This document shows positions 5,081-59,283 of a stretch of DNA of 64,000 nt, one piece after another; position 1 is the first letter of the stretch; every line of letters starts with the position of its first letter. Below the pieces are notes generated by a model. It saw only the letters and a list, made by a program, of their open reading frames with translations, did no database searches and was not told the DNA's origin. The translations under genes and the position numbers were made by a program. The stretch is taken from contig WAOK01000001.1 of NCBI GenBank assembly GCA_015521325.1, positions 144,412 through 208,411 of the forward strand, in the 5' to 3' direction. Source of the DNA: Desulfurococcales archaeon (lineage in GTDB: Archaea; Thermoproteota; Thermoprotei_A; Sulfolobales; NBVN01).

Positions 5081-5084
5081 GTTC

Positions 5085-7616: not shown

Positions 7617-8582
7617 ATGAGTGAGGCGAAAGAGGAGAGGCCCGTCATGAGGCTTGAGGATCTGGGGCTGAGCCCAACAATAATCAGGAAGCTGAAAGAG
7701 GCGGGCTATAAGACAATAGAGGCAGTGGCGGTAGCGAACGTCAACGACCTAGCCAGTATTCTTGGGGTGCCGATAAACACCGTGCAGAAGATCGTGAACA
7801 AGGCCCGGGACGCGCTAGGACTGAGGTTCAAGACAGCGCTCGAACTGAAGCAGGAGTCCAGGAACATAGGCAGGATAACTACGGGGTCAAAGAGGCTGGA
7901 TGAGCTCCTCGGCGGCGGAGTGGAGACTAGAACGATAACGGAGTTCTACGGCGAGTTCGGGACAGGGAAGACGCAGATATGTATGCAGCTCTCCGTCAAC
8001 GTTCAGCTACCTCCCGAGGAGGGCGGGCTAAGCGGTAAGGCCCTCTACATCGACACGGAGGGTACCTTCAGGTGGGAGAGGATCGAGAAAATGGCGAGGG
8101 CTGTGGGCCTGGATCCCGATGAGGCGATGAAGAACATAATAGTGGCTAGGGCCATAAGCACAGACCACCAGATAGCCATAGTAAACGAGGCCATGGAGCT
8201 CATACCGAAAGAGAACATCAGGCTACTCGTGATAGACTCCGTAACAAGTCACTTCAGGGCCGAATACCCTGGCAGGGAGAACCTTGCGGTGAGGCAGCAG
8301 CGCCTTAACCAGCACCTACACCAGCTAGCGAGGATAGCCGAAGTCTACAACGTAGCAGTGGTAGTGACCAACCAGGTCATGGCCAGACCTGACGTGTTCT
8401 ATGGGGACCCGACTCAGGCAGTGGGAGGTCATGTACTGGCACACGCACCCGGTGTTAGGGTGCAGCTGAGGAAGGCTAGGGGCAATAGAAGGATAGCGAG
8501 GATCGTTGACGCCCCGCATCTGCCGGAGGGTGAGGCAGTATTCCTAATAACGGATGAGGGCATCAGAGACGTGGAGGAATGA
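7617..8582 (+). CDS. radA: DNA repair and recombination protein RadA
   Basis: N-terminal HhH ([19 protein letters not shown]), Walker [10 protein letters not shown], Walker B LLVIDS. ATG at 7617; GTG at 7608 is also possible. Confidence 0.95.
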
Positions 8583-9312
8583 GGGCCTCTTGCTACTCAG
8601 CCCCGACGCTGTCGTGGCAGTACCAGTAGCGGCTACCCTCGCGTACGCAACATATAGAGACCTCAAATACAGGGATATACCCGAACTCACCTGGGTTCCT
8701 GCGGCTGTATTTGTCATCATATACAACGCGTACTTAGGCAGATATGAGCCTATTCATACTCTGTTCTCGTTCTTGCCTGCTATAGCGCTTCTTGCTATGG
8801 CTTTCCTTGACCTCATTGGTGGGGCGGATGCCCTGGCAATGCTCCTAATAGCTGTTGCTCATCCAAGCTTCCTCGTGCTTCCTATCTCGTTGCTTACGAT
8901 GGCGTTCTCAGTTATTCCGCCAATGATATTGATCGTTTACTACCTCATCCTGAACCTCTCCCATAAGGAGGAGCTGAATAGGTTGGCCTGTGTTAGAGGT
9001 TCTAAAAAGCTGTTGCTGTTCATGGGGAGGCCTCTAAGAGTGCGTGATTACCTTAGGTCGAAGTTTCTATTCCTCCTCACGGTGCCTTCAGAGAAAGGGT
9101 TCCAGTGTGGTGTATCAGCCGATATCGACATAGACTTTGAACAGGAGAAGAGGATTGTTATAGATGCACTGAGAAAGGGAGTGATGTCGGAGGACTCACT
9201 TGTGTGGGTCTCGCCAGCATTACCTCACATAGCCTTCATATTTGTTGGTTACGTAATTTCCCTCTTCATACCACAGGATCTTCTGCTCTCACTGTTCCTT
9301 AAGACGCGGTGA
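8554..9312 (+). CDS. A24-family aspartic prepilin/preflagellin peptidase (PibD/FlaK-like)
   Basis: Polytopic membrane protein with [11 protein letters not shown] (first catalytic Asp region) and IGGADALAM (GxGD-type second Asp). TTG at 8590 would avoid the overlap with radA. Confidence 0.7.
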
Positions 9313-9364
9313 AGGTATCGGCATTGGTATAAGAACTGTTAACTCCTAGATTAACTGGTGCTGA

Positions 9365-10983: not shown

Positions 10984-11111
10984 GCGAAATCTTAACATAG
11001 ATATGCATAAACGATAGGCAAACACCACATAATTTTCTTAGCCACCTAAACCAGGTAGCATTAGACTCTCTTTTTAAAAAGCCGACCAATCATTAAGGTG
11101 AGGTCCTGACC

Positions 11112-27992: not shown

Positions 27993-28120
27993 CCGCCGGT
28001 AGCTCAGCGGCAGAGCGCCCGGCTGTAGTCAGCCCCGGAGGGTACAGGAACAACCGCCTGCGGGCGGGCCCTCCGGCAGAAACCGGGTGGTCGGGGGTTC
28101 GATTCCCCCCCGGCGGACCA
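27993..28120 (+). tRNA. tRNA-Tyr(GTA) with a canonical 37/38 intron of about 51 nt
   Basis: CCGCCGG-TA-GCTC..GAGC-G-CCCGG-CTGTAG[intron]A-CCGGG-TGGTC-GGGGG-TTCGATT-CCCCC-CCGGCGG-A-CCA. The C1-G72 pair is typical of archaeal tRNA-Tyr. Confidence 0.9.
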
Positions 28121-31291: not shown

Positions 31292-31474
31292 ATGGCGAAG
31301 AAGCCCCCAGTTAAGGTTAAAGACCCAACCACAGGGAAAGAGGTCGAGCTAGTGCCAGAGAAAGTCTGGGTGCTGGCTCCGCGCGGGAGGAAGGGAGTGA
31401 AGATAGGTCTGTTCAGGTCCCCTGAGACCGGGAAGTATTTCCGCGCTAAGGTGCCTGACGACTACCCTGTCTAA
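31292..31474 (+). CDS. cren7: Chromatin protein Cren7
   Basis: [60 protein letters not shown] is near-collinear with Sulfolobus Cren7. Confidence 0.95.
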
Positions 31475-31538
31475 ATTACAATCGTAGGGCATTTTTAGCT
31501 CAATAATCCAACGTTTTTGCTTGCTCCCGAACTAGTTT

Positions 31539-32075
31539 ATGGTGGGTGCTGTGGTAAAGCTCCTTATCATATCGGACACCCATGATAACTTAGCAGCCAT
31601 AGATGACCTCATTAAATGCCTTCGAGCAGGGGGCTATACCTATGACTCCGTTGTGCATCTAGGCGACATAATCTCGCCTTTCACGTTAAGGAAACTCATA
31701 AACGAGCTTGATGCACCCATGATAGCGATCTTCGGAAATAATGACGGCGATAAATCCCTTCTTAAGAGTATCTTGCCGGGCATAGCCGACCCGCCGGTAG
31801 TAATGGAGCTGGGAGGACGTAAGACCCTCTTACTCCATGGCTTCAAGTCTCCAGAAATGACCGAACTCTTTGTGAATTCCTTAGCGAATAGTGGGGCATA
31901 TGACATCATATTATATGGGCATACGCACGTGGCCAGGATTGTGAGAAGGGGCAGTACATTGGCCGTTAACCCCGGCACAGTATCCGGTTATGTCAGTGGT
32001 AAGAGAACATTCGCTATCCTAGACACTGATAAATTAGATACAAAGATTGTTGATATGGATCAGTGCATCATGTGA
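31539..32075 (+). CDS. MJ0936/YfcE-family metallophosphoesterase
   Basis: IISDTHDN, LGDI, GNNDGD, YGHTH motifs. Confidence 0.8.
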   Translation: MVGAVVKLLIISDTHDNLAAIDDLIKCLRAGGYTYDSVVHLGDIISPFTLRKLINELDAPMIAIFGNNDGDKSLLKSILPGIADPPVVMELGGRKTLLLHGFKSPEMTELFVNSLANSGAYDIILYGHTHVARIVRRGSTLAVNPGTVSGYVSGKRTFAILDTDKLDTKIVDMDQCIM

Positions 32076-33765
32076 GAGCTGTAGGGGGTTCGGGAAACGA
32101 TACAGGCAGTGCCGCCTGCTCCGGTGCTATCCTCACAATACCCTCACCCCTCTCAAGCACGTTAACAAGTTCCATAATTTCCTCACTGATCTTCACATAC
32201 CTTCGCACACTCTCCCAGTACACGGGACTAGGAGAACTCATCGCAATGAAGAGCCCAGCATCGGACGAAAGACCTGGCTCCTTATCTATGTCTTCGATTC
32301 TCTGAGTCGCCACAGCCACCGAGACACCGTAACTACGGCTGATTCTCATGAGATCCGACACGAGACCAGGTATCCCGAGGTAGATCCAGGCCTCATCAAG
32401 CAAGAGTAGGCGCCTAATCCCCTCGTCTCCTGCTTTGAGCAAGCCCATCTTCATTGCTGCCTCTAGCACCAGAACTAATGTCCTCACGAGTTTCTCGTTC
32501 TTGACAAAGACATTCGATATGTCAATGACTACATTTGAGTTCGGCTCAGATAGTATCTCAATGAGGCGTTGCTGACCAACATCGAGTGAGGCTACCTGGT
32601 CGAGTACCTCCCTTATCTTGTAGGAGGAGTACTCATCCAGCGTTAAGGTAGCGAGCGAGGCAGCGTGCTCTAAAGGATTGTCAGCGCTTATTGAGCTCCT
32701 CAGCACATTGTAGAGCTTTACCCTCAGCCTCTCATCAACAATCCCGAACGCCTTGCTTATTATCTCGGTGATGACGTGGGGGTTACGGCTTTCCTTGAAT
32801 ATTTTGCTCAGCCCGAGTGAGACGTCCTCGAGTCTTATGATGTCGAATACCTCCCCTCTAGAGCTCAATCGACCCGGGTACTCTCCCTTCGCGTCGATTA
32901 CTATGTACCTGATCCCGTAGACGGTGTTCATTTCTGATGCTAGGTGGGCAAGTAACTCCGTTTTCCCAGAGCCTGTGGGCCCGACTACAACTATATGGGG
33001 TGATGGGGCATTCTCTAGGTTCCAGAACACTTCCTCTCCTGTGGAGAGGTTCTTTCCAAGATATACCCCCGCCTGTCTGCCCCTCCTGTGAGTTCCCCGT
33101 ATCAGAGCGGGCACCATGAATGGGAGGTGATATGCTGAGGCAGTCCTTATGAATCCCTTAACAATTATTCTCTTCAGTAACCAGCCAATGAGGCCGCCTC
33201 CGACGCTGTCAAAGCCCCGAAAAAACACCTTAGCAGCGAACCTCGCCTCCAGCCCACCAACACTCTTGAGCCTTATACCCAGCGCTCTTAGTGAATCGCT
33301 CAAGAGCTTAGCCCGTATTCCCGCCCGCTGTATAGCTTCCTCCTCATTATGTGCGCACGCCTCAACGGCATAGAAAATGATGGCCTCTAAAGGTGGTACC
33401 CCCTCTTTCAACACAGTATCACGCATTTTCTTCAGTCTTGCCAGTTTTGCTCGGAGATCTGATCTCGAGGGATTGCTTTCTAGCTCCAGCTCGAGTGTCT
33501 CTATAGTCCTCTCTAGCCTCATAACGTACTTCTCGAGTTCCATGGGTACGACATACGCCCTAACCTCCACAGGGAATCCGAGGTTGAGAGCATTGTGATA
33601 CGCTTTTAGTAAGGCCTTTAACTCCTTACTGCTTGACTCGCTAAGCAGGGAAGAAAAGCCTGTGGCTACCAACAGCTTTTTCGCGCAGAACCGCCTCTTC
33701 TCACGAATAATTAAGGTATCCCCTCTTACAATGACACCCTCAATCATCGACCATCCCCGTCTCAC
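32068..33765 (-). CDS. FtsK-HerA superfamily ATPase, VirB4/TrbE/CedB-like
   Basis: Walker A VVGPTGSGKTE, IVIDAKGEY, Walker B LLLLDEAW, ATQR. About 270-aa N-terminal domain. GTG at 33765; the ATG at 33747 gives an 8-nt overlap with the upstream gene. Confidence 0.7.
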   Translation of the reverse strand: MRRGWSMIEGVIVRGDTLIIREKRRFCAKKLLVATGFSSLLSESSSKELKALLKAYHNALNLGFPVEVRAYVVPMELEKYVMRLERTIETLELELESNPSRSDLRAKLARLKKMRDTVLKEGVPPLEAIIFYAVEACAHNEEEAIQRAGIRAKLLSDSLRALGIRLKSVGGLEARFAAKVFFRGFDSVGGGLIGWLLKRIIVKGFIRTASAYHLPFMVPALIRGTHRRGRQAGVYLGKNLSTGEEVFWNLENAPSPHIVVVGPTGSGKTELLAHLASEMNTVYGIRYIVIDAKGEYPGRLSSRGEVFDIIRLEDVSLGLSKIFKESRNPHVITEIISKAFGIVDERLRVKLYNVLRSSISADNPLEHAASLATLTLDEYSSYKIREVLDQVASLDVGQQRLIEILSEPNSNVVIDISNVFVKNEKLVRTLVLVLEAAMKMGLLKAGDEGIRRLLLLDEAWIYLGIPGLVSDLMRISRSYGVSVAVATQRIEDIDKEPGLSSDAGLFIAMSSPSPVYWESVRRYVKISEEIMELVNVLERGEGIVRIAPEQAALPVSFPEPPTALT

Positions 33766-35818
33766 CGAACAATCTCTTAGCGGCTAACACCGCAGCCAAC
33801 ATAGCATCCCGAACGAGTTCGTCCCTTGTAATGATGACCGACTGCTGACTCCCAAGCGCGAGATATACTCTGCATCCATCAACTAAGTCAAGAGGTTTCA
33901 GAGCGATCTCGACACTCTTCCCTGCTCCTGAGGACTCTCCACACAGAACAGTGAGTCCAACAGACCCGATAACATGAAGGACACCGTCACCCCTTACTGC
34001 GATACTCTCAACTTTCCCATCGATTTCAACACACCTAAAATTCCTCGGAGTATCTGAATCAGTGCAGCTAATCACCCTGATGATCTCTGCTTCGAAGCCG
34101 TCTTCAGCGAGCACAGCCTCTACCAGAGCAGGAAGTAGACAATACTCCTCATTATTAGGCTCGACCACTCTCCCGTCAGCACATAGAATGCGCACCTTAC
34201 CAGGTGCTTCTATCCCATCCCTACTAACCTTTATCGCCGAAGCACGCACAACACGATCTATTCTCGCCTCCCTCAGCATGATAACAGTGCCTGGGATAGC
34301 GTACTTAGTCCCGATCTCGTCCACTAGCTCAAGGGATATAGGGATAGCCGCACCAGGTCTGGACTTACCAACCAGCAGAAACTTAATTAACCCGTCCTTG
34401 CTATGAACGTCATTAGCCCGGAACCCGGGTGGAACAAGCACGTGCACGCTCCATGCGCCGGGCGATGTCTTAATTACGGTAGCGTGACCCACGATCAATG
34501 CATTCATTTCTGGATCACCAGCTACTCTACCAACAACGCTAGCGTCTGCTTTCTCAACCACGATAGAGTTCAGCCGAGGAGCCGAGCTAGTTATCGTGAT
34601 TCTCCGCGCAAATTCCGTAAGCGGCGACCTAATCATAATCACGGGTGACGCCGTTTCGCCCAGCCTCAGAGGCCTGAGATAAAGGTGTACGAAGCCCTCC
34701 CGCTCGAGGCGGTGACCACTAACATCACCTAAAACCTCTACCTCGGAGCACTTCCCTGGGAGCCTCACCCTCACTGTGGCATATGTCTCGGCGTCAACGA
34801 CATTTTTCAGTACCTCGATTGAGGGCTCAACCATAGTGTGGACTGACGAGACCACGATGTGACTGTCGCTCATGCACAAGAGTAAGCCCTCATTGTTCGG
34901 TACACATACTCTTGACTTGATCGACGTCACTATTCCGGAGCTATTAGCGAGCATTACCTCCTTGCTATCAATGGGGTTAAGGGTCGCTATATCGGCAGCA
35001 GAGAATGGGGTAAAGAAGCGTTTAGTTAACCCCATCCACAGTCTCTCCTTGAGGATCCCGCACCCTACCTCGCTCTCACACAACACTAATGAGTCATTGA
35101 GGCATGCTGCTATTGGTACTCCTTCGATAGGTATCAATGGGTCGATGTCGGTGCCCGTGACCTTAATGACAAAGCTCCCTTCGTCACTTTTGTACATTAA
35201 GTAATTGCTCTTCCCGCATGATGTTAGTGGGTATGTGGGTGTAAGCGGCGTGTATATCGGGTTTTTCCCTGGGCGTAAAATCACCGATTCCTCAGAAGCA
35301 TTGATTACGCAGATACCCCCACGACATGTGACGTCTCTTAACTTATCTAATTCTATAATATGTTCTGATGACTCTCCCGTTATCGGATCCCAAACTACTG
35401 CAGTACATTGTCTCTGATTACATCCCGCTATAGCGGCGACGGTGTCGTCAGCGCTATGATAGACATTCCTAAACCTCATCAAGCCAGTTAATGGAGTGTA
35501 AACAACGACGTAATTTCCTTTGGGGAATATGCCTGCTAACTTCCGACCCCAGTTGATAGCTATGGGGTTTTCCGGGTTTCTCGGGCTTCCTAGTAGCTCT
35601 CTTTTCAAGTTCCGTATCTCGTCAAGAAGAACCGAATCATTAAGAAAAGGAGTGAGTTCTACATCCTCTTCAAGAACAACCCTAAACACGCGTTTCGGAT
35701 AATCACCGCCAACCAATGCGTAGAATTTGTCGTTGATTGGACGAAACGTGATAGGTGTTCTGGAAATGCTCGGGGAGAGCTTGGCACAACCGAGAATTAA
35801 TGGGATCTTACCGTTCAA
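33740..35818 (-). CDS. 692-aa hypothetical protein (no recognisable domain, signal peptide or TM helix)
   Basis: Long ORF between the pilus platform gene and the VirB4-like ATPase. Its TTG start overlaps the upstream stop as TTGA. Beta-rich composition. Confidence 0.6.
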   Translation of the reverse strand: MNGKIPLILGCAKLSPSISRTPITFRPINDKFYALVGGDYPKRVFRVVLEEDVELTPFLNDSVLLDEIRNLKRELLGSPRNPENPIAINWGRKLAGIFPKGNYVVVYTPLTGLMRFRNVYHSADDTVAAIAGCNQRQCTAVVWDPITGESSEHIIELDKLRDVTCRGGICVINASEESVILRPGKNPIYTPLTPTYPLTSCGKSNYLMYKSDEGSFVIKVTGTDIDPLIPIEGVPIAACLNDSLVLCESEVGCGILKERLWMGLTKRFFTPFSAADIATLNPIDSKEVMLANSSGIVTSIKSRVCVPNNEGLLLCMSDSHIVVSSVHTMVEPSIEVLKNVVDAETYATVRVRLPGKCSEVEVLGDVSGHRLEREGFVHLYLRPLRLGETASPVIMIRSPLTEFARRITITSSAPRLNSIVVEKADASVVGRVAGDPEMNALIVGHATVIKTSPGAWSVHVLVPPGFRANDVHSKDGLIKFLLVGKSRPGAAIPISLELVDEIGTKYAIPGTVIMLREARIDRVVRASAIKVSRDGIEAPGKVRILCADGRVVEPNNEEYCLLPALVEAVLAEDGFEAEIIRVISCTDSDTPRNFRCVEIDGKVESIAVRGDGVLHVIGSVGLTVLCGESSGAGKSVEIALKPLDLVDGCRVYLALGSQQSVIITRDELVRDAMLAAVLAAKRLFGETGMVDD

Positions 35819-37308
35819 ATCATCCCACCCCCTATTAGGATCATCAGCGATATCCCAGGAACAAGTCCTGAGCTCAGTTTGTCGAACCCGGCCTTGGATA
35901 CGAAGACTCCGAGTGCTACCGACGATGCGATGAGGTACCTTATGAGTAACTCATCTACAGAGAGCAGTAGCTGCGTTGTTGACAAGAGAAGGAACGTAAT
36001 TCCTATACTCACGGCAGCTAAACCTATCCCTGTTATTATGAGTCTTCGGATATCGGCTATCATGTTCTCAATGACGTCCTTAAGCAAGATTAAGGTCTCG
36101 CGTCTCACGTCCCCTCGAGAGAAGAGATTACTTATTGTGAAGTCGGCGAAACACGTTATCCAGTAATGATACTCATCACATCTTCCTCTAGGGAATTTTG
36201 AAAGCGTACCCCCTACACTCTCCAGGTATGCCCTGAGCCTATTTATGTTACCGACCGTGAGAAGGGGTATTTCGGAGATCGCCTTAATTACGTTGTTTAG
36301 TGAATGTAGTTCCTTTAGGGCACTTGATAATTCCTTAAGCCAGATAATGCCGGATAACAACAGCGCAATCCCGGATGCTGAGAGAACAAGTCTGTTGAGA
36401 ATCAGGACACCTATGAGTAATAGTAAGATCCCTGCAAGGAACAGTACGCTCCGTGATCTGGAATACTTTCCCTTTAATTGTGTCATATGGCGGGGGAGTT
36501 TAGGTACAGACGCGATCCCTACTGGTATAAGTATCAGCATCATCGCAACAGCGTAGGATATGGCGGAGCGCCCGATAAGGTTAGTCAAAAGTGATGCTAT
36601 GGGTGGGACATACCCAATAAGGGCTGAGAGAGCCACGGAGAACACGATCCTGGTTTTCACAGCGTCGCGTGCCTTCTCCTTAAGTGCCCTAGTGTAATAT
36701 CTAAGGGAGTCGGTGATCCATACGCTGCCCAGTCCCATAGAATAGGCTGTTAGGTATTCCGAGAACAGCCTCCTAAGCTTTGTGGAGAGCTTCTCGCTCA
36801 TTATCCGCAGGGACTCAAGTATACCAAAGACTGCGGAGAGGGCTGCGAGTCGATCGCTGAGTTTTAGGAGGGCAGGGAAGAGAGTTGATGCATACCTCCT
36901 CCAACTTCCGCCGAGCTCCACCACATCCCTTCCAAGCTCCATATCTGTTCCTTGCGAGAGACCTAGAGATATTATGAAGTATTCGAGCTCTGCATGCACA
37001 CGCGCTGAGTAGTCGAGCGCCTTGAGGTACCACACAGCGATGTATGCTACAGGTGGCAGAATCATTGAGAGAACAACAACCATTATTTCATAACCAGGTA
37101 TTGCTTCAGCGATGAGTGGTGCTAAGAAAATAATGAGCGTGTACGTGCCTGCAAGCCAGATAAGTATTTCTTTATATGCTTCGCTTCCAATTTTTCTTGT
37201 ATCGCCGCTCCTAACTCTCAATTCCTCTATGAACTCAACGAAAAATTGGAGTGGTTTGAGCAGTATGTGAATAGCTCTTGAGCTAGTGGCCTGTCTCTGC
37301 ATGAGCAA
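35815..37308 (-). CDS. Polytopic membrane protein, FlaJ/TadC-like type IV pilus platform
   Basis: Two repeats of TM segments flanking helical cytoplasmic domains of about 110 aa. It lies directly downstream of the secretion ATPase. Confidence 0.6.
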   Translation of the reverse strand: MLMQRQATSSRAIHILLKPLQFFVEFIEELRVRSGDTRKIGSEAYKEILIWLAGTYTLIIFLAPLIAEAIPGYEIMVVVLSMILPPVAYIAVWYLKALDYSARVHAELEYFIISLGLSQGTDMELGRDVVELGGSWRRYASTLFPALLKLSDRLAALSAVFGILESLRIMSEKLSTKLRRLFSEYLTAYSMGLGSVWITDSLRYYTRALKEKARDAVKTRIVFSVALSALIGYVPPIASLLTNLIGRSAISYAVAMMLILIPVGIASVPKLPRHMTQLKGKYSRSRSVLFLAGILLLLIGVLILNRLVLSASGIALLLSGIIWLKELSSALKELHSLNNVIKAISEIPLLTVGNINRLRAYLESVGGTLSKFPRGRCDEYHYWITCFADFTISNLFSRGDVRRETLILLKDVIENMIADIRRLIITGIGLAAVSIGITFLLLSTTQLLLSVDELLIRYLIASSVALGVFVSKAGFDKLSSGLVPGISLMILIGGGMI

Positions 37309-38557
37309 TCGCCCTCATTTTGTATAACTTCCTGATGATGACTCTATTCGTTGAGTCATCATAAATGGGTTTCTCAACCGACACGACGGTTCTTCGTAAA
37401 CTACCGTCTTTGGCGGAGAAACCCATCACAATTATGGCGTCAAACATTGCGACCTGATATGGGCTGAGCTCTATCGGCGGACTCATGAGCCTCGTTACCA
37501 CCTCCCGTGCGCTCCCGCCATGGAACGTCGTCAGGCTCCCCAGACCCATATTCATTGCCTGCGGCAGCACTCTGGCCTCTCTGCCCCTTGTCTCACCGAT
37601 CACGATATATCTAGTCACTGAAGCCCTAAGCGCAGCCTTTGCTAAGATCATCTGGTCGACGTTCCTACCACTGCCCCAGAGGTTCGCCGGGACAATGTAT
37701 CTCACCCACGCACTTTCCGGCAATGGATCTATCTCGGGTGTATCCTCTATTATTACTATTTTCCATTCCTTCGGGATCAGAGAGTAAAGTATTGCTCTTA
37801 GGAGTGTGGTCTTGCCCGAGCCAGGTGGCCCAGCGATTATTATTGAGCCTCTCTTCTCGATGATCCTCTTAATTGACTTAACAACTTCCGGAGGTATAGT
37901 GCCTCTCTTGATCATCTCATCAAGGGAGATACTACTGATACCCCTCTTCTTCCTAATGACTATCTCGCCCACTCCTCCGGCGACTTCAGGGTGAACTAGG
38001 TGTACTCTGTGTCCGCCGTCCTCTTCTGGGAGGTTACCGTCGGCTATCGGATTTAGTGGAGTGACTAATTTTCCGATCTTCTCGGCGAGCAGCTCCATGT
38101 ACTCAAGAAATTCTGCCTGAGTCTTTATTGTAATATTTGTTGGGATGTAATCGGCTCTCGGATCTCTTTGGAGTATCTCTGAGTGCCTGACCCACACTGT
38201 GCCGGGGCCAATGATGGATATGTCTTCAATGTATGGATCGTCCAGTAGTATCTGTAGTTTCTTATATCGCATTGACCTAGATATGCTCACGAGTTCACTG
38301 AACTTTGGTTTCTTGCCGGTAGTTCTTCGTATGGCCTTAATTAGGTTGAATAGCGTGATCTTCCTCTCGTTGATTGATTCAATAGCCCTAGCAATGTCCT
38401 CTCTGCTAAGTGCCTTGGTTTGTTCAGCGATTAAGTACTTGTAATTGTTCCCTCTTTTCACAATCTGTACGCGAGTGCTTGAGACCGTGTACTCAAGGAT
38501 TTTTTCATAAAAAGAAGTGTTCAACCCCGTACCCTCCCTCTTTCGCCGCTTTTTCAT
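37283..38557 (-). CDS. Type II/IV secretion system ATPase (FlaI/TadA/VirB11 family)
   Basis: Walker A IIAGPPGSGKTTLL, Walker B/Asp box KIVIIEDTPE, His-box-like TFHG. Confidence 0.85.
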   Translation of the reverse strand: MKKRRKREGTGLNTSFYEKILEYTVSSTRVQIVKRGNNYKYLIAEQTKALSREDIARAIESINERKITLFNLIKAIRRTTGKKPKFSELVSISRSMRYKKLQILLDDPYIEDISIIGPGTVWVRHSEILQRDPRADYIPTNITIKTQAEFLEYMELLAEKIGKLVTPLNPIADGNLPEEDGGHRVHLVHPEVAGGVGEIVIRKKRGISSISLDEMIKRGTIPPEVVKSIKRIIEKRGSIIIAGPPGSGKTTLLRAILYSLIPKEWKIVIIEDTPEIDPLPESAWVRYIVPANLWGSGRNVDQMILAKAALRASVTRYIVIGETRGREARVLPQAMNMGLGSLTTFHGGSAREVVTRLMSPPIELSPYQVAMFDAIIVMGFSAKDGSLRRTVVSVEKPIYDDSTNRVIIRKLYKMRAIAHAETGH

Positions 38558-38997
38558 TACAGTGGTATTTCAACAGTAGTTGTCGCACCAGCGTCGGAGG
38601 TTAGGGTAACCACTACCAGTTGGGGTGATGTGACGCTGCCGGTTGCAACGATTACGAGTGTCTGTCCGGGGCTCACGGTTCCTCCTGCAGGTATGGTTGA
38701 GTATTGAGCTGCAGTTGTTGTTCCGTCGCTCCCGACTATGTTGACGCCTGTTACGCTGAAGTCCGAGTCACTGTTGTTCTTCAGTTTGATTGTCACAGTT
38801 AAGGTGCCGTTTCTTAGCTCTTTGGATGTCAGTGTGCCCGATATCTCAGGTATCGCTGTCTGCTCGGATACCTTACTCGCTTGTCCCTGTAACCATGACT
38901 GCACGGCGAACGCTACGGGTATAGCTATGGCGGCCATGACGAGCACTACTATTAGGTCGCTCACGCCTTTCCTCATCCTGCGGGATCTTGCCCTCAT
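38557..38997 (-). CDS. Archaeal type IV pilin-like protein with class III signal peptide
   Basis: MRARSRRMRKG|VSDLIVVLVMAAIAIPVAFAV: a basic n-region, KG cleavage motif and hydrophobic helix, followed by a Thr/Ser/Val-rich beta domain. Confidence 0.75.
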   Translation of the reverse strand: MRARSRRMRKGVSDLIVVLVMAAIAIPVAFAVQSWLQGQASKVSEQTAIPEISGTLTSKELRNGTLTVTIKLKNNSDSDFSVTGVNIVGSDGTTTAAQYSTIPAGGTVSPGQTLVIVATGSVTSPQLVVVTLTSDAGATTTVEIPL

Positions 38998-39078
38998 GGG
39001 GTTCCCCGTGAGTAGAGGGTGTTTTTAAAGTGTGCATGGGGGTGTTGGCTTAAATGATTAGCTGATTTCCTCCCTAGA
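38998..39078. promoter_or_regulatory. Compact divergent promoter region between the pilin operon and the wHTH gene
   Basis: An 81-nt spacer. GTTTTTAAAG (about 39020-39030) serves as a TATA-like element for the minus strand and CTTAAATGAT (about 39049) for the plus strand, each roughly 25-30 nt from its start codon. Confidence 0.4.
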
Positions 39079-39378
39079 ATGGTGCTGGTATTGAGTGGGG
39101 TCAGAGAGAGGTTGAAGAGCATACTTTCCTCGATGAGGGGCAGGGTTGTGACTCCCGGTGACGTAGTTGCCCTCACAGGTCTGCCGAGGTATGAGGTGCT
39201 AGCTGCCTTCCATGTACTCGAGGCACTGGGATTCATTGAGGTTGTGCACGCTAAGGGTAATTACAAGATCTACAAACTCAGTGACCTAGGTGAGAGGCTT
39301 CTTGAGGCTCTTGAGGAAGCAGAAGAGTTTATGATAAGTATCGGACAGACACAGCTGGAAGCGGAGGCAAGTGCTTAA
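39079..39378 (+). CDS. Small winged-helix DNA-binding protein (putative regulator)
   Basis: VTPGDVVALTGLPRYEVLAAFHVLEALGFIEVV...YKLSDLG fits an HTH plus wing. It is divergent from the pilin operon. Confidence 0.5.
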   Translation: MVLVLSGVRERLKSILSSMRGRVVTPGDVVALTGLPRYEVLAAFHVLEALGFIEVVHAKGNYKIYKLSDLGERLLEALEEAEEFMISIGQTQLEAEASA

Positions 39379-39412
39379 CTCTTTTAATTTAATTCTACTC
39401 GAGGGGGTGTGA

Positions 39413-39814
39413 GTGGTTTTGCTAGTAAAGCCCATAAGGAACAGAGGTCACAGCCTCGTCATAGAGCTCTCAAACGAGAGAGAGCTCTCTAGCCTCGTAG
39501 GAAGTATCTCTCTCACATTAGAGAGCATAAAGAGTGAGAAAAGGTTAGCAAGCAATTACGCTAGGGCGGCTTCAGCGATTATGAAGGAGGTTAAGGGATC
39601 GTCTGATGATGAGACGAAGAGCGAAAAGGTGAGGAACGTTTCATTTATTTTCTTAAGCATGCCGGACCCGACAATGATATCCACGGCCATAGGTGTAACG
39701 ACCTTCATTGCCAGTAGGGGTCTCCATGCCCTAGAGCGTAGAAGGTACGGATTCTTGGACGTGTTTAGGGTATACAGAAAAATAAATATAGAATTATATG
39801 ACTTAATCGACTAA
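39413..39814 (+). CDS. Hypothetical protein with one predicted TM segment
   Basis: 133-aa ORF 34 nt after the wHTH gene. Hydrophobic stretch MISTAIGVTTFIA. GTG start. Confidence 0.4.
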   Translation: MVLLVKPIRNRGHSLVIELSNERELSSLVGSISLTLESIKSEKRLASNYARAASAIMKEVKGSSDDETKSEKVRNVSFIFLSMPDPTMISTAIGVTTFIASRGLHALERRRYGFLDVFRVYRKINIELYDLID

Positions 39815-39821
39815 GGAACGC

Positions 39822-40211
39822 TCAGAACTTCCTCCTGAAGCTCCTCTCCGGTGCTTTGGGTCGTTCTTCAGGCACTTCATCCTTTTTAGGTACTTCGTCG
39901 TCACTGATATCCTGTATTGTGTTTCTGCCACCTATGTTAAGCTGTACCTCTCCTCTATAGGCTGTCGTCCAACCACCTTTGATCTCTATTGCCTCTCCTT
40001 CCTTAATGGTGCCAGCTGCCCTTCCCCATAGCGTCAGCTTAATTCTTCCTGTTTCATCTCCCACAATTGCCTCACTGATTGTTCTCTCTCCTTTCTTTGT
40101 CTGAATTGTCTTTGGCGGGCTTGTTTCGAGAACCCTAACCTTTATGTCGACGTTCGACATTCCGGGTTTTAGATCCATGACTTTCTTGCTCTTAGACTCG
40201 TTTTCGTACAT
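39822..40211 (-). CDS. ssb: Crenarchaeal single-stranded DNA-binding protein SSB
   Basis: OB fold TISEAIVGDETGRIKLTLWG...WTTAYRGEVQLNIG is nearly collinear with Sulfolobus SSB. Flexible charged tail. Confidence 0.9.
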   Translation of the reverse strand: MYENESKSKKVMDLKPGMSNVDIKVRVLETSPPKTIQTKKGERTISEAIVGDETGRIKLTLWGRAAGTIKEGEAIEIKGGWTTAYRGEVQLNIGGRNTIQDISDDEVPKKDEVPEERPKAPERSFRRKF

Positions 40212-40321
40212 ATCTACGATACACCACGCAGACGGTACGGTTCCTACGTCGTGTAGAGGGTATTAAACACTCCGTTAGAACAATAATTAATTCTAAAAAA
40301 CTGTAAAGTTCTATGCTTTTA

Positions 40322-40552
40322 TTACTCTTTTTCTACGGTGATGGCGCCAGTCGGGCAAGCAGTCCTAGCCTGTTCCACACAGTCCTCGAGATCCTCAGGA
40401 ACCTCGCCCTCCCACGGGTTAGCGCCGCGATACTGCTCAACTATCTGGGATTTACCGTCCGGACCTGCCTCGAAGACCTGCGGGCAAAGGGCATAGCATA
40501 CTCCGTCAGAGATACAGAGATCCCAGTCAACCTTAACCTTAAGCTTGGCCAT
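40322..40552 (-). CDS. Small [4Fe-4S]/[3Fe-4S] ferredoxin
   Basis: MAKLKVKVDWDLCISDGVCYALCP...CPTGAI, Pyrococcus-type single-cluster ferredoxin layout. Confidence 0.85.
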   Translation of the reverse strand: MAKLKVKVDWDLCISDGVCYALCPQVFEAGPDGKSQIVEQYRGANPWEGEVPEDLEDCVEQARTACPTGAITVEKE

Positions 40553-40680: not shown

Positions 40681-40779
40681 GGGCCCGTAGCTCAGCCCGG
40701 CAGAGCGCCCGGCACGCCGTGTACCGGCGCGGGAATCATAACCGGGTGGTCCGGGGTTCGAATCCCCGCGGGCCCACCA
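40681..40779 (+). tRNA. Elongator-type tRNA(CAT) (Met or Ile2) with a 22-nt intron at non-canonical position 32/33
   Basis: GGGCCCG-TA-GCTC..GAGC-G-CCCGG-C[ACGCCGTGTACCGGCGCGGGAA]TCATAA-CCGGG-TGGTC-CGGGG-TTCGAAT-CCCCG-CGGGCCC-A-CCA. Confidence 0.85.
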
Positions 40780-52465: not shown

Positions 52466-53554
52466 TTGGCTGGCGAGGACTGGACATCCACGCTGCTGGT
52501 CTTGCTGATACTGTCATCCTTCTTACTGAACTTCACTGACATACCTCAGAGGATACAGCTATGGAGGTGGTCATCCTATATCCGGAAGCGCATAATCCAG
52601 CTCTTCGAGATCGAGCAGGATGCCAGGAGGAAGGCGGTGAAGTATCTGAGTGAGCAGGGACTTAAGGATCCGGGCAAGGCGATTGATGACTTCGTAGACA
52701 ACTACTTCCTCATATCTCCAGTAAGCCTTGAGCCAACCGATATAATTAGGAGGCTCAGGCACCTAATCAGAGAGAGAAACAAGAGTGTGAAGGCCTACGT
52801 CAGGGAGGTATTTCCCGATGCGTCCGAAGAGGTTAGGCAGAATGCTGAGGTGATGTTTGAGATTGTTTCCGTGCTCGTACTCATAAATAAGATTGTGAAA
52901 CATTACTTCCAGCTCGGGCTCAAGTATAGTAACTGGATATTGATGATGCAGCTGGCCCTCGAGATGCCTATGATAGTCCGCCTAGCTAAGACATACGATG
53001 ATGCTATGGACTCCTTCGCTAGCGGTACACCGGTTGGTGACGGTGCCGGGCCCTTGGCGGTGAGGTACCTCCTCTCATTCGATGTTCCCGAGAGGGAGGT
53101 CGCTGAGGAGACCCTTGTCTTAGAGGGCACGGTTGAGGGGAGGAAGGTGTTGGCTATAAAGGCGAAGGGTCCAGGCTCAAGCGTCGGCTACCCCGGCGAG
53201 GCACTCCGCAAGGTAGTTGAAGAGGTGGGTAGGGTCTCAGCAATAATCACTGTGGATGCGGCCCTAAAGCTGGAGAGTGAGGAGACCGGCGAGGTTTCGT
53301 ATGGTGTTGGCGCAGCGATCGGCGATCCCGGGCCAGAGAAGATAGAGATGGAGAGGGTTGCGGCCGAGAAGGGTGTGCCTCTCTACGCCGTTGTGATTAA
53401 GATGAGCGAGGAGGATGCAATAACGACAATGAGTGAAGAAATCGTCAAGGGTGTCAAAAAGGCTGTGGATATAATTAAGGAAATTATAAGGAAGCTTCCG
53501 CCTGAGGAACCTGTGATAGTCGTTGGTGTCGGTAACACCATAGGTATAAGGTGA
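52466..53554 (+). CDS. Conserved archaeal membrane-anchored protein (DUF1512-like)
   Basis: N-terminal TM helix, length and overall pattern recall DUF1512. Recognised from memory only. Confidence 0.45.
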   Translation: MAGEDWTSTLLVLLILSSFLLNFTDIPQRIQLWRWSSYIRKRIIQLFEIEQDARRKAVKYLSEQGLKDPGKAIDDFVDNYFLISPVSLEPTDIIRRLRHLIRERNKSVKAYVREVFPDASEEVRQNAEVMFEIVSVLVLINKIVKHYFQLGLKYSNWILMMQLALEMPMIVRLAKTYDDAMDSFASGTPVGDGAGPLAVRYLLSFDVPEREVAEETLVLEGTVEGRKVLAIKAKGPGSSVGYPGEALRKVVEEVGRVSAIITVDAALKLESEETGEVSYGVGAAIGDPGPEKIEMERVAAEKGVPLYAVVIKMSEEDAITTMSEEIVKGVKKAVDIIKEIIRKLPPEEPVIVVGVGNTIGIR

Positions 53555-53871: not shown

Positions 53872-53997
53872 GGCGGCCCCGACCATAGCGGCCGGGAAAC
53901 ACCCGGACTCGTCCGATCCCGGATGTTAAGCCGGCCGCGTTGGGGCAGGCAGTGAGGTCCGCGAGGCCTCGCAGCCGCCCCAAGTTGGGGTCCCGCC
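53872..53997 (+). rRNA. rrf: 5S ribosomal RNA (stand-alone)
   Basis: GGCGGCCCCGACCATAGCGGCCGGGAAACACCCGGACTCGTCCGATCCCGGATGTTAAGCCGGCC...CCCAAGTTGGGGTCCCGCC is collinear with crenarchaeal 5S, and the ends pair. The track ORFs here are artefacts. Confidence 0.9.
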
Positions 53998-54856: not shown

Positions 54857-54946
54857 TGCCGCCGCCGGGATTCGAACCCGGGGCCTCCGGATCTCCCAGG
54901 CGGGGCCGTATGAGTCCGGCGCTCCACCAGGCTGAGCTACGGCGGC
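54857..54946 (-). tRNA. Elongator-type tRNA(CAT) (Met or Ile2) with a 16-nt canonical intron; CCA not encoded
   Basis: Reverse complement reads GCCGCCG-TA-GCTC-AGCCTGGTG-GAGC-G-CCGGA-CTCATA[CGGCCCCGCCTGGGAG]A-TCCGG-AGGCC-CCGGG-TTCGAAT-CCCGG-CGGCGGC-A. Confidence 0.85.
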
Positions 54947-55056: not shown

Positions 55057-58000
55057 GTGATGGTGGTTCGTGTGAAGGTGCTCAAAACATTAGCTATGTT
55101 GATAGCACTAACTATTGTCGTATCATCGATCGCACCGGCACTAGCACTAACGCAGAGGCAGGAGAACGTTAACAACGCATTTATAGACCCTAGGCTCCTC
55201 GACGACTCGACATATAGCTCAAGAGGCGTGGTATCGGACTCATCATTCCTGATGAAGATGAGGGAAAACATGAAGAAAATAGTGACTGCATCTGAGATCC
55301 TTACAGAGCGCGCCAATAGCATGAAGATAAGGCCTGGGCAGGCAAGAGTTGTCATAATAGCCACTCCCGCAGCCAGCATCGACGAAATAGCGTCGAGGTC
55401 AAGAGGAATAATAACTTACGTAGATGTGGGAGCCACCAGAATAATCGTTGCTTGGGCAACAAAGCAGGACGTCCTCAACCTAGCTAAGGTCGACGGAGTC
55501 AGTGCAATACTGCCTGATGTGGCGATCGAGCCTGCGACACCGCCCGGCAAGGACCCAGAACTAGTGAAGCCGACAGCTCAGTTCACATCGACATCCAGGC
55601 CTTCAATAGGAGGGCCTGAGCCCACAAGCTTCTTTGCTGTCAACATAACTGGAGCGAGGAACGTCTGGGAAAGGTACGGCCTCGAGGGTGCTAACGTAAC
55701 AATAGGCATAATAGATACAGGCGTTGACTATGGCTCGCCCGCGCTCGGGCTCGAGGCCATTGCGAGAGAGCCTGACGGAACTCCGAAAATACTTGATGAC
55801 GGTCTAGGCCTGGCCATAACTAATGTTACGGTGACGCCGAATGCCACAGGTTACTTCAGCTTAAACACTACCGAAACCCCAGTACTCGTATATGATCCAA
55901 TGGCTGAGGACGTCTACTACACCAATACGACATGGGTGCTGGTGTATAACCTCGCCACCGGCGTCATCAATTATACAGAGTACAACCTTACAGGAAGCTG
56001 GTATGTGGGTAACATAACCTCAGCAATGCCAATGAAGTTTGGTCTGCAGGTATACTACCTGATTGCCTACCCGTACATACTTTACTTCAGCGTTCCGCTA
56101 ATACTCGTTGATGAACGCGCTGACATACCGGGCTATGACACTGTCTACATGCTCGTCAATGACACCTACCAGCAGATAAGGTCATTTATCCTCGGCACTA
56201 CTCCACCACCACTCAGCTATAGTTTCGCTGGCGAGGAGCCAATAACATATGGTCACGAAGTAGCGGGCCTCGATACCAACGGTGATGGATACTACGACTT
56301 CAGCCTCGGCACGCTGGCAGGCTATGCCTTCGACGCCTACGGGATAATCCACTGGCTCAAGACAGGTGACAGTACCTACCTATTCGATACTCCATGGAAT
56401 TACTGGACCTACGACTACATAGCGCAGATATACCCGGGCATCGACCACGAGAACGGAACTTACGTGACCCTAGAATACGACTTCTACTCGCATGGTACGC
56501 AGTGCGCAGCGACAGCAGCCGGTAGACACACAACCTACTACCTCTATAGCTGGGTCTTCGGATTGATATCCCAGGAAATACCGGGTCAGGCACCGGCAGC
56601 GAAGATAGCTGCGGCAAATGCCCTCTGGGCTGGCGACACAATGGTGGCACTTCTCTGGATGGCTGGTTATGACTTCGTCAGCACTTACCAGCTTGATGGG
56701 GCAAGTAACTGGGTATGGACATACAGCGGCGAGCCAAGGGTAGACATAACCAGCAACTCCTACGGCATCAGCACCTGGTTCGTCTACTACTTCAACTACG
56801 CTACCAGCTACGACCCATACTCACAGCTCTTCGACTACGTATCTATGAGGACAGGAGTCATCAACGTTATAGCGGGTGGTAACGGCGGTCATGGCTTCGG
56901 CACAACGACCACGCCAGGCTCCTCACTACTCTCAATAACTACAGCGGCTAGCACGGAGTTCTACTTTAGACCGTATCTGTACGGGTACATATCAGGCGGC
57001 TACGACGACATAATACCGTGGAGCAACAGAGGCCCAGTAGCCTCCGGCCTAGCGAAGCCCGATGTCGCCGGCGTCGGTGCTTACGCGTTTGCGGGTGGCA
57101 GAACCTGGGAGGCGCTCTACCAGTATGGTGACTTCAGCAACTACTTCGCCTACGACCTCTTCGGCGGCACCTCAGAAGCTACTCCGATGACAGCCGGTGC
57201 CATAGCGCTAATGATACAGGCTTATAAGGTCTGGTATGCGTCCAGACCGACCCCCGACTACATCAAGACCATACTGAAGTCAACAGCAGATGACCTAGGC
57301 TATGGCCCCTTCGACCAGGGCAGTGGCAGAATAAACGTTGAGGCCGCCGTGAAGTTCATACTCGAGAGAAAGGGCCTGACGGCAACATCCAACAGCCCCT
57401 ACACCTACTACCGCTTCAATATCCAGAACCTAGACGCCTTCGGCGAGGGCGTCAAGGACACTGCTCTCCGCGAGTCATACCTGGATACCTCAGTGTACTT
57501 CGGAGACCTACTGCCTGGCGAGTCGGCAACAAAGGGCATAACGCTCTTCACGAGAGATAAGGGTACGTACCTAATTAAGGCGTACAAGCTAGAGCTAACA
57601 AACATAGTGCCGATATGTGATATACTCGACACTAACGCAAGCCTCCTGACCTATGCAGTGAACTGCACAGGCGACTCAATTTACATGAACTTAACAGCGT
57701 GGCAGTCAGGTTCTCAGATTCTTGCCATCAACAACTTAAGCATCTTCCAGGACGCTGACCTCGTAGCCGCAATAGTATCGATACCTCTCGATTACTTTGC
57801 ACCCAATGTCACGACCGGTAATTATACCCAGTACGTGAGCTGGTTCACCGAGTTCGGCGTCGCGGTCGATGTTGACGGAAGCGGTAACTTCTCCGTGGGG
57901 GAGACAGCAAGGCTCAACGTTGATTACAGAGATGCTAATGCTCACATGGTAACCATAGGCAAGCCGATGGAGAAGTTCATGAAGGCCCTCGACGAAGTAG

Positions 58001-59283
58001 CTTATGAGATATGGGGCATCCCGCTAAGCCCATACTTCTTCTGGGAGCCTGACCTAAGGCTCTATATGATATCCAACGAGTGGTTCAATAAGACAGTTAA
58101 CAACCAGTCAGTCATAGTGCCGTTCCACATCGACCTATATGTCTACAAGCGCGTCGAGTGGGACTGGATAACACCGGGCACCAGCGTGGTCTCAGGCCTC
58201 AATGGCTTCAAGTACGTGCCAGTAACGATCAGCATACCGTCAAACGCTACTCCAGGCCTATACTCGGGTTACATAGCTATCGAGCGTGTTGACCCGGCGA
58301 ACTACTCAATAGTCTACGACACAGTCCTGATGCCGGTCTCAGTCAACGTTATGTTAGAGATCAGCAACGTAACCGATGTAAACCTGTATCCGTCATTACC
58401 CATGCAGGAGTACTACCCGCAGAACTGGCTGAGGATAGCGTACGACTGGGGATGGAGAGAGGAGTCAGGTGATTGGAGGGTGCTGAAGGTCAAGATAACT
58501 AACAGCAGCATAGGCTTCCTGGGCGTGTACCTGGCAGCGCTAGGGGACGATTATAACCTAACGAACCTCGATGTAGCAATAATAGGGCCTAACACTGTTA
58601 CAGTGTATAATGGTAAGGCAGGTAAGTTCGTGACCTATTCAGTGAACGGCTACATACTCGGCGCGAACTTCGCCTACAGGAGCAGGTACTACCAGCCTGA
58701 CATACCGCCGCAGCCGTTCTTCCCCTACCCAATAGAGGGTACCTCAATAGTAATGGCGCCGATATCCGGCGAGGGTGTCTATACGATACTCTATAGGGCA
58801 ACGATAGAGGGCGGCGAGAGCGGCTACTACAACGGTTATGAGCCGGTCGCGCTCTATATAAGAACCTCAGCGATCGACTACAAGACCAGCGTGAACGTAT
58901 TCACCGGCTCCTCAGCCCTCATAACGGGTAAGATAGAGACTACAGTCCCGACGTGGTTCACCACAGGTAACCTGAGCGTGGGCTACGACGAGATAGCAAT
59001 ATTCAATGGCCAGACATACGCTAACATGACAGATAACGGCATAGTCATTAACTTCACAGGAACGGCCTTCGCTGCAAGCGGCCCAGTCTATGTAGCGACC
59101 TTTGCAGGGAATGTGACGGCCGCAGCTACGGCTGTGCCGGGCACCTATGAGTTCAACATACTGATAGATGCTAACGTGCCTCAGTACCTATACGGAAACC
59201 TCGATAACGGCACCCTTATGGGTTACGTAATAGACTTTACCCTAGAGAAGCCAGCAACTGTAACGGTTTACAGTAGCAGCTAA
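55057..59283 (+). CDS. Secreted subtilisin-family (S8) serine protease, pyrolysin-like, 1408 aa
   Basis: Signal peptide LKTLAMLIALTIVVSSIAPALA. Catalytic Asp IGIIDTGVDY, His YSHGTQCAATAAG, Ser GGTSEATPMTAG. Many N-x-S/T sequons. Confidence 0.9.
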   Translation: MMVVRVKVLKTLAMLIALTIVVSSIAPALALTQRQENVNNAFIDPRLLDDSTYSSRGVVSDSSFLMKMRENMKKIVTASEILTERANSMKIRPGQARVVIIATPAASIDEIASRSRGIITYVDVGATRIIVAWATKQDVLNLAKVDGVSAILPDVAIEPATPPGKDPELVKPTAQFTSTSRPSIGGPEPTSFFAVNITGARNVWERYGLEGANVTIGIIDTGVDYGSPALGLEAIAREPDGTPKILDDGLGLAITNVTVTPNATGYFSLNTTETPVLVYDPMAEDVYYTNTTWVLVYNLATGVINYTEYNLTGSWYVGNITSAMPMKFGLQVYYLIAYPYILYFSVPLILVDERADIPGYDTVYMLVNDTYQQIRSFILGTTPPPLSYSFAGEEPITYGHEVAGLDTNGDGYYDFSLGTLAGYAFDAYGIIHWLKTGDSTYLFDTPWNYWTYDYIAQIYPGIDHENGTYVTLEYDFYSHGTQCAATAAGRHTTYYLYSWVFGLISQEIPGQAPAAKIAAANALWAGDTMVALLWMAGYDFVSTYQLDGASNWVWTYSGEPRVDITSNSYGISTWFVYYFNYATSYDPYSQLFDYVSMRTGVINVIAGGNGGHGFGTTTTPGSSLLSITTAASTEFYFRPYLYGYISGGYDDIIPWSNRGPVASGLAKPDVAGVGAYAFAGGRTWEALYQYGDFSNYFAYDLFGGTSEATPMTAGAIALMIQAYKVWYASRPTPDYIKTILKSTADDLGYGPFDQGSGRINVEAAVKFILERKGLTATSNSPYTYYRFNIQNLDAFGEGVKDTALRESYLDTSVYFGDLLPGESATKGITLFTRDKGTYLIKAYKLELTNIVPICDILDTNASLLTYAVNCTGDSIYMNLTAWQSGSQILAINNLSIFQDADLVAAIVSIPLDYFAPNVTTGNYTQYVSWFTEFGVAVDVDGSGNFSVGETARLNVDYRDANAHMVTIGKPMEKFMKALDEVAYEIWGIPLSPYFFWEPDLRLYMISNEWFNKTVNNQSVIVPFHIDLYVYKRVEWDWITPGTSVVSGLNGFKYVPVTISIPSNATPGLYSGYIAIERVDPANYSIVYDTVLMPVSVNVMLEISNVTDVNLYPSLPMQEYYPQNWLRIAYDWGWREESGDWRVLKVKITNSSIGFLGVYLAALGDDYNLTNLDVAIIGPNTVTVYNGKAGKFVTYSVNGYILGANFAYRSRYYQPDIPPQPFFPYPIEGTSIVMAPISGEGVYTILYRATIEGGESGYYNGYEPVALYIRTSAIDYKTSVNVFTGSSALITGKIETTVPTWFTTGNLSVGYDEIAIFNGQTYANMTDNGIVINFTGTAFAASGPVYVATFAGNVTAAATAVPGTYEFNILIDANVPQYLYGNLDNGTLMGYVIDFTLEKPATVTVYSSS

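Follow-up and report, generated by a model that had tools for sequence, protein, structure and literature searches.

What is a gene for a VirB4/HerA-like ATPase doing at the end of a type IV pilus operon? The question is raised by a stretch of 64,000 nucleotides (nt) from an uncultured hot-vent Desulfurococcales archaeon (assembly GCA_015521325.1, contig WAOK01000001.1, positions 144,412 to 208,411), which we call the window and whose own numbering is used below. On its minus strand, at 32068-38997, five open reading frames (ORFs) follow one another in the order pilin, pilus ATPase, platform protein, a protein of 692 amino acids (aa) and an ATPase of 565 aa. The genes can be identified, their junctions are tight or overlapping, their order is conserved over very divergent lineages, and they sit in a core-chromosome setting. 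Sulfolobus cells use Ups pili to aggregate once their DNA is damaged, and CedB is the motor that takes in DNA from neighbours. In Sulfolobales, Ups pili and the Ced importer cooperate in DNA exchange from separate loci (PMC9905601, PMC11823120). The two make up the best-studied archaeal pathway of chromosomal DNA exchange and have hitherto been treated as independent loci. We consider it likely that the operon described here joins an Ups-like aggregation pilus to a co-expressed CedB, the VirB4-like ATPase of Ced DNA import.

The five genes and their products

38557..38997, minus strand: type IV pilin with a class III signal peptide, 146 aa (ORF translation; NCBIfam UpsA at low significance)
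37283..38557, minus strand: pilus assembly ATPase of the FlaI/TadA/UpsE type, 424 aa, starting at ATG 38557 or TTG 38524
35815..37308, minus strand: polytopic platform protein, putative distant homologue of the UpsF/TadC type, 497 aa, likely start ATG 37302
33740..35818, minus strand: putative distant UpsX homologue, 692 aa (family-level NCBIfam UpsX matches)
32068..33765, minus strand: CedB-clade ATPase of the FtsK/HerA superfamily, 565 aa, or 559 aa from the likely start ATG 33747

Homologues exist for each of these ORFs and other genomes keep the arrangement, so that these are real genes and not chance ORFs. An earlier, sequence-only reading had described them as five translationally coupled genes, and the ORFs, the junctions and the motifs it named (MRKGVSDLIVVLVMAAIAIPVAF, GPPGSGKTT, VVGPTGSGKTE, IVIDAKGEY, LLLLDEAW and ATQR) are all found in the sequence and its translations. 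The overlap stands at the three later junctions. The stop codon of the pilus ATPase (37283-37285) lies inside the platform ORF, which gives an overlap of 20 nt from ATG 37302 or 26 nt from TTG 37308; the platform and 692-aa genes meet in TTGA at 35815-35818; and the stop of the 692-aa gene (33740-33742) overlaps the last gene by 8 nt (ATG 33747) or 26 nt (GTG 33765). At the first junction TAATG can be read directly in the sequence, but overlap there depends on an ambiguous ATPase start. The gene call on an identical public contig (locus L021 of our survey, described below) begins at TTG 38524, leaving a 32-nt gap to the pilin gene, and the pilus ATPase of locus L001, which is 89% identical, begins at an ATG 18 nt downstream of the window's ATG. 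Given these alternative starts, the pilin/ATPase junction is tight, not necessarily overlapping.

Just past the pilin stop, about 40 nt into the ATPase gene, the minus strand carries a run of five T's (TTCTTTTTAT, 38503-38520). Speculatively, it could serve as a partial archaeal terminator and shift the transcript ratio in favour of the pilin over the machinery.

The last gene had been read as VirB4/HerA-like, and profile searches narrow this to the CedB kind. The 565-aa ATPase matches the NCBIfam CedB model over residues 45-546 with 194 bits (E 3.8e-57), far above the competing NCBIfam models for CedD (37.5 bits, 1.1e-9), VirB4 (28 bits, 6.1e-7) and Thermoproteota HerA (13 bits, 0.02), so that a grouping with HerA repair helicases is not seen. 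Since the curated equivalog cut-off of the CedB model is 700 bits, we regard the protein as a divergent member of the CedB clade and not as an equivalog. Pfam DUF87 and AAA_10 are both above their gathering scores, Walker A (GPTGSGKTE) and Walker B (LLLLDEAW) are intact, and a phmmer search with the protein reaches the annotated CedB of Saccharolobus islandicus at 1.6e-28. By sequence, the solved structures closest to it are those of HerA-clade ATPases from defence and repair systems, in agreement with the published placement of CedB within the HerA clade (PMC11868833). In an AlphaFold2 model (predicted local distance difference test, pLDDT, 76.7) the N-terminal domain is VirB4-like by predicted fold: the top Foldseek match is the full-length TrwK/VirB4 of R388 (E 5.7e-18, about 580-590 aligned columns), and HerA and TrwB rank lower. 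The N-terminal transmembrane (TM) anchor of Sulfolobus CedB has no counterpart in the window protein, a soluble form which contains no hydrophobic segment and matches the model from position 91 onwards. Some CedB orthologues likewise have no TM domain (PMC11823120), and the anchor is therefore not strictly defining for CedB.

The first three genes had been taken for a standard type IV pilus core, and the components of such a core are indeed present: a signal pilin, a FlaI/TadA-type ATPase and a platform with nine predicted TM segments. The class III signal peptide of the pilin is clear from the translation, with a cleavage context of …RMRKG followed by VSDLIVVLVMAAIAIPVAF. The pilin matches NCBIfam UpsA at E 4.4e-4 (20 bits against a cut-off of 130; residues 9-136, model positions 1-122 of 136), and the homologous pilins of loci L008, L009 and L002 match UpsA weakly as well. 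Its C-terminal domain is weakly similar to the immunoglobulin-like lamin-tail domain (Pfam LTD, 1.1e-4), and the protein matches the archaeal pilin 8fj5 of the PDB at E 0.002. A motif scan of the 64-kb window found no second class III pilin. The 424-aa ATPase, with Walker A GPPGSGKTT, matches Pfam T2SSE (1.3e-19), NCBIfam FlaI (2.4e-50), TadA (8.8e-37) and BasE (1.7e-33) and the FlaI structure 4ii7 (3.4e-32), and on these similarities is best described as generically of the FlaI/TadA/BasE type. The platform protein shows nine hydrophobic segments in a simple Kyte-Doolittle scan. A profile of its family, from which locus L025 was left out, aligns with almost the whole of the L025 platform (68.7 bits, E 2.3e-23 at Z=1), and the L025 platform in turn matches NCBIfam UpsF at 6.3e-52; through this single, transitive link the platform family of the window appears to be a distant homologue of UpsF.

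It is the fourth gene that, together with the platform, gives the pilus module its character. The 692-aa protein is mostly beta-strand, with no TM segment and no Pfam domain, and its sole NCBIfam match is UpsX, at E 0.011. Within its family UpsX is the only model matched repeatedly (at 6e-12, 8.3e-7, 6e-6 and 2.1e-5). Of 17 aligned members four match it, among them P0144 (2.1e-5), P0151 (6e-6) and P0153 (8.3e-7). Locus L025, with the same five-gene order, combines an UpsX-like protein (6e-12), the UpsF-type platform and a last gene that matches NCBIfam CedB at 2.1e-104. The family is rare. An exhaustive HMMER search of 1.84 billion representative sequences returned only 18 representative clusters and did not reach Sulfolobales UpsX directly, and a word-indexed homologue search returned six near-identical sequences only; an AlphaFold2 model built with six close homologues (pLDDT 40) was unusable. 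At the level of the family, and transitively, these matches point to a distant homology with UpsX. Since the 692-aa family seems distantly related to UpsX and the platform family links to UpsF, the pilus module appears to be Ups-type and not a generic core as first read, the window's own proteins being too diverged to show the relationship directly.

The divergent promoter, its second gene and the prepilin peptidase lie outside the five genes:

38998..39078, no strand: divergent promoter region, 81 nt (sequence and alignment of homologous upstream regions)
39079..39378, plus strand: winged-helix protein of the NCBIfam SSO5209 family, 99 aa, divergent neighbour of the pilin gene
8554..9312, plus strand: PibD/FlaK-type prepilin peptidase (Pfam Peptidase_A24 and Arc_PepC_II; NCBIfam FlaK)

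As had been noted, the pilin gene (ATG 38997) and the divergent winged helix-turn-helix (wHTH) gene (ATG 39079) have this 81-nt spacer in common. The pilin ATG is preceded, about 29 nt upstream, by a TATA-like box, CTTTAAAAAC, which implies a near-leaderless transcript, and a second AT-rich element, ATTTAAG, faces the wHTH gene; both are conserved in aligned homologous upstream regions. The ultraviolet (UV) motif of Sulfolobus, A(N)TTTC, which is documented in S. acidocaldarius and S. tokodaii alone (PMC5817253), does not occur in the 100 nt before the pilin gene, either in the window or in its close relatives. We did not use an occurrence of A(N)TTTC in L008 and L009, at about -55 from the pilin start and about 15 nt upstream of TATA (about 8 nt in Sulfolobus), because a 6-mer with one free position is weak evidence. 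The peptidase proposed at 8554-9312, some 30 kb from the operon, scores above the gathering cut-offs of both Pfam peptidase families (Peptidase_A24, 32.6 bits against 26.5; Arc_PepC_II, 47.4 bits against 29.9) and matches NCBIfam FlaK at 1.9e-8.

Conservation and chromosomal setting

We surveyed conservation by scanning a genome collection with the CedB alignment, followed by tblastn and hidden Markov model searches. The full order pilin, ATPase, platform, UpsX-like, CedB was found in loci L001-L006, L008-L010, L022/L023 and L025; L007, L015 and L024 end at a contig edge, yet all three retain the UpsX-like gene and cedB, and L015 has some of the platform gene as well. The operon-bearing loci belong to metagenome-assembled genomes (MAGs) of Desulfurococcales or Thermoprotei, several of them from vent or hot-spring samples. 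Relative to the window, identity across these loci ranges from 86% down to 26% for CedB and from 89% down to 41% for the pilus ATPase. Wherever both ORFs were read, the UpsX-like gene lies directly upstream of cedB, overlapping it or within a few nt. The linkage of pilus genes to CedB, on which the sequence-only reading depended, is thus kept across many divergent Thermoprotei MAGs. The cedB neighbourhoods of Sulfolobaceae, Acidianus, Pyrodictium and a further Thermoprotei locus (L012-L014, L016) do not show it.

CedB comes in two pieces in L008 (9884-11642), L009 (9247-10759), L011, L015 (3041-4838) and L028 (5054-8930): the N-terminal one measures about 115-205 aa, the one with the ATPase about 290-390 aa. 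Recurrence in several independent MAGs suggests a real split-gene lineage rather than assembly error. In L028, an Ignisphaera sp. MAG, the region 5054-9375 lacks pilin, pilus ATPase and platform. A wHTH homologue there stands divergent to a long open frame (928 codons) and to an ATPase piece of CedB (342 aa). At its C-terminal end the long frame matches the N-terminal domain of CedB; its first 650 aa gave no family match.

In the window the operon is flanked by core genes, namely those for Cren7, a Metallophos_2 phosphoesterase, the wHTH protein and its 133-aa partner, SSB and ferredoxin, and the same order is found in most loci. The stop of cedB overlaps the convergent phosphoesterase gene, and the GC content of the operon is like that of its surroundings. 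A Zestosphaera sp. MAG (L027, GCA_038843015.1) keeps Cren7, phosphoesterase, wHTH, DUF123, SSB and ferredoxin genes at 8130-11050 (window 31292-40552) without the operon, the phosphoesterase and wHTH genes being separated by 56 nt. At this site, then, gain or loss affected the operon as a whole. When the five operon proteins and several neighbours were scanned against Pfam and NCBIfam, none proved to be an integrase, relaxase, VirD4, VirB6 or VirB2, and the precomputed Pfam listing of the identical contig likewise holds none of these and no other type IV secretion gene. Because the same core position is occupied in lineages whose CedB is only 32-35% identical, long vertical inheritance with occasional loss is indicated: the operon is a chromosomal module, inherited vertically over a long time and lost or gained as a unit.

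Two cooperating systems or one machine

How would such an operon work? By analogy with the Sulfolobus model, a single near-leaderless transcript would start from the TATA box upstream of the pilin gene. The prepilin would be cut after RKG by the PibD-type peptidase acting in trans, and the ATPase and platform would assemble the pilin into pili that draw together cells of the same species. CedB, made from the same message, would then drive the import of the partner cell's DNA through a channel of the CedA/CedA1 type whose genes lie at another site, and the imported DNA would be used for recombinational repair. The UpsX-like protein may act with CedB at the membrane, because its gene always abuts cedB and the CedB found here has no anchor of its own. 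Sulfolobus UpsX is a cytoplasmic protein that relocates to the membrane after UV, and an upsX deletion keeps pili and aggregation and loses about half of the UV-induced increase in DNA transfer (PMC3892339). A partnership of UpsX with CedB would account for this pattern in Sulfolobus, where pili and aggregation do not need UpsX but DNA transfer is promoted by it.

The comparison with known systems places the operon between two of them. With the Ups operon (upsX-upsE-upsF-upsA-upsB) it has in common a class III pilin, a FlaI-type ATPase, a polytopic platform and a large protein (about 650-800 aa), here putatively of the UpsX family, in which neither TM segments nor known domains are found, and in both cases the genes form one tightly packed chromosomal operon. 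The host of the present operon lies outside the classical Sulfolobales, to which the literature restricts Ups. With Ced (CedA, CedA1, CedA2, CedB and CedD, in Sulfolobales, Desulfurococcales and Acidilobales) it has in common an ATPase of the CedB clade whose Walker motifs are intact and whose N-terminal domain is VirB4-like; cedB lies inside a pilus operon here, whereas there it stands alone, and the membrane anchor is lacking. Ted of Thermoproteales and bacterial type IV secretion likewise tie a VirB4-fold ATPase to intercellular DNA transfer, but the neighbours here are type IV pilus parts and not VirB2/VirB6-like proteins, and no ParA, Rad50 or TedD-like gene is present in the locus. The likeness to bacterial competence pili (Com/Tfp, ComEC, ComFA) is conceptual, a type IV filament and a DNA-translocating ATPase serving uptake; the translocases are unrelated (ComFA/ComEC versus CedB), no ComEC or ComEA homologue was seen, and Sulfolobales are reported not to take up free DNA (PMC11823120).

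Several points weigh against an Ups-like pilus working alongside a Ced importer. The operon is known from sequence alone; expression, pili, aggregation and DNA import are inferred for this organism. Its gene order, pilin-E-F-X with cedB as the fifth gene, is unlike the X-E-F-A-B of Ups, and it has one pilin where Ups has two. Similarity to the Ups models is weak or transitive: the platform of the window has no direct match to any Pfam or NCBIfam family, T2SSF and UpsF included, and the Ups assignment of the 692-aa protein, with its E of 0.011, runs through family-level links. Damage induction is unsupported, because A(N)TTTC is missing from the promoter. None of CedA, CedA1, CedA2 and CedD is encoded within the 64-kb window, and we assume, by analogy, that the classical Ced channel would be encoded elsewhere in the genome.

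The alternative, in line with the candidate hybrid machine of the sequence-only reading, is a single integrated DNA-uptake machine, in which the pilus apparatus, aided by the UpsX-like protein, would dock the anchor-less CedB. DNA would be drawn through or beside the platform, much as in the competence pili of bacteria, and no Ced pilus or channel of the VirB2/VirB6 type would be involved. The overlapping or nearly overlapping junctions, a five-gene order kept over deep divergence and the missing N-terminal TM region of CedB (the match from model position 91) all fit such a machine. So does the lack of a CedA-like polytopic protein in the window and in the loci whose ORFs were listed, and in L008 and L009 two polytopic proteins beside the operon match no NCBIfam family. 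However, cedA is unlinked to cedB in Sulfolobus also, so that its absence nearby says little; reports of Ced genes cover Desulfurococcales widely (PMC11823120, PMC11868833); and organisms with a Ced system are already known to have CedB and CedD orthologues that lack the anchor (PMC11823120). We regard an integrated machine as unlikely, and slightly less probable still the specific form in which the pilus and CedB would be one physical machine, the UpsX-like protein tethering a VirB4-type motor to the platform, with import via the type IV filament system and possibly ancestral to the separate Ups and Ced loci. If true, it would unite type IV pilus and type IV secretion in a chimaera without parallel elsewhere. 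Because Ups and Ced are already known to cooperate, two cooperating systems in one operon are a simpler reading than a new hybrid machine.

Two other readings fare worse. The operon might encode an adhesion or biofilm pilus, with the UpsX-like and CedB-like proteins in another role, such as secretion of other substrates or chromosome handling, and the likeness to CedB reflecting common ancestry only. The 194 bits, well under the equivalog cut-off, the HerA-clade defence and repair ATPases as closest solved structures by sequence and the UV motif missing from the promoter would suit this view. Yet the CedB model stands more than 150 bits above every HerA, VirB4 and CedD model, intermediate members of the operon family reach 350 bits on it, the N-terminal domain has a VirB4-like predicted fold, and DNA-metabolism genes recur nearby (SSB in the window, XPF in L008 and L009), and we hold a purely adhesive role to be improbable. 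That the VirB4-like ATPase belongs to the transfer module of an integrated conjugative or mobile element might be argued from its presence and from the behaviour of the operon as a unit at one site, which the Zestosphaera MAG lacks. Against this, there is no integrase, relaxase, VirD4, VirB6, VirB2 or flanking tRNA and no room for att sites, the GC content matches the surroundings, the core-genome position is the same at 32-35% CedB identity, and the operon was not seen on plasmids or viruses or at variable, repeat-flanked sites. Core synteny and the absence of mobility genes led us to reject this very improbable reading.

The joint Ups-like and CedB operon does not correspond to any characterised pilus locus, in keeping with what the sequence-only reading had supposed; the nearest, Ups, has the order X-E-F-A-B without cedB. 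Recalde et al. describe ups genes as exclusive to Sulfolobales and ced genes as extending to Desulfurococcales and Acidilobales (PMC11823120), and Beltran et al. note that some crenarchaea encode Ced without Ups (PMC9905601). A 2026 survey of archaeal type IV filaments also places the Ups-containing subsystem exclusively in Sulfolobales and mentions no FtsK/HerA- or conjugation-type partner (bioRxiv 10.64898/2026.04.22.720090), and the main text of Makarova et al. 2016 describes no such locus. A Fervidicoccus VirB4 gene near orphan pilins (Makarova 2016, Table S4) was set aside as a different arrangement, with no coupled ATPase and platform. The linkage of pilus genes to cedB is undescribed in the CedB literature that we searched, and an earlier mention may exist elsewhere. 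On this evidence the operon is an apparently undescribed variant of two known, cooperating systems and not a categorically new machine.

Its main value would lie in the link between UpsX and CedB and in the wider spread of Ups-like pili. The operon suggests that such pili occur in other hyperthermophilic Thermoprotei, and that selection has long kept the pilus genes and cedB in one transcription unit in those lineages. The constant position of the UpsX-like gene against cedB leads to the testable idea that UpsX is a partner or adaptor of CedB at the membrane. The operon could also serve as a genomic marker to predict DNA-exchange capacity in uncultured vent and hot-spring archaea.

Neighbouring genes and other features of the window

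The divergent wHTH protein matches the NCBIfam SSO5209 family at 1.9e-25, and its homologues are widespread in Desulfurococcales. In Pyrolobus fumarii the gene calls within 10 kb of it include neither a pilus ATPase nor an ATPase of the FtsK/HerA type. We rejected a role as dedicated regulator of the operon, since the wHTH gene is present without the operon at the same site (Zestosphaera) or elsewhere (Pyrolobus fumarii); it is probably only a synteny neighbour. It is followed in the window by a gene for a 133-aa protein with no family match (39413-39814, plus strand), a pairing conserved in related loci, and in Pyrolobus fumarii by an uncharacterised 115-aa gene.

Genes of DNA metabolism adjoin the operon in several genomes: crenarchaeal SSB in the window (39822-40211, minus strand), L001-L006 and L022, and the XPF 3'-flap endonuclease in L008 (2724-3419) and L009 (411-1184), with a KaiC/RadA-like ATPase also in L008. 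Their proximity may be functional or merely syntenic. Just past the phosphoesterase gene, L002 (12391-13056) encodes a conserved 221-aa protein with equivalents in L003-L005 and L010, and none in the window. It has no family match, and its N-terminus, basic and then hydrophobic (MNINIR…RAILVSALLLLFIVIPVSA), suggests that it might be an extra pilin-like or secreted component.

Elsewhere in the window, the tRNA genes at 5235-5381, 27993-28117, 40681-40776 and 54857-54946 far exceed 75 nt in length and probably contain introns, a usual feature in Thermoprotei, and a 5S rRNA gene stands alone at 53875-53993. The 1408-aa product of 55057-59283 (plus strand), which has a subtilase domain and is hydrophobic in a segment at its N-terminus, is probably a secreted or surface protease; upstream of its gene lies one for a DUF1512 protein (52466-53554, plus strand), and neither is linked to the operon.

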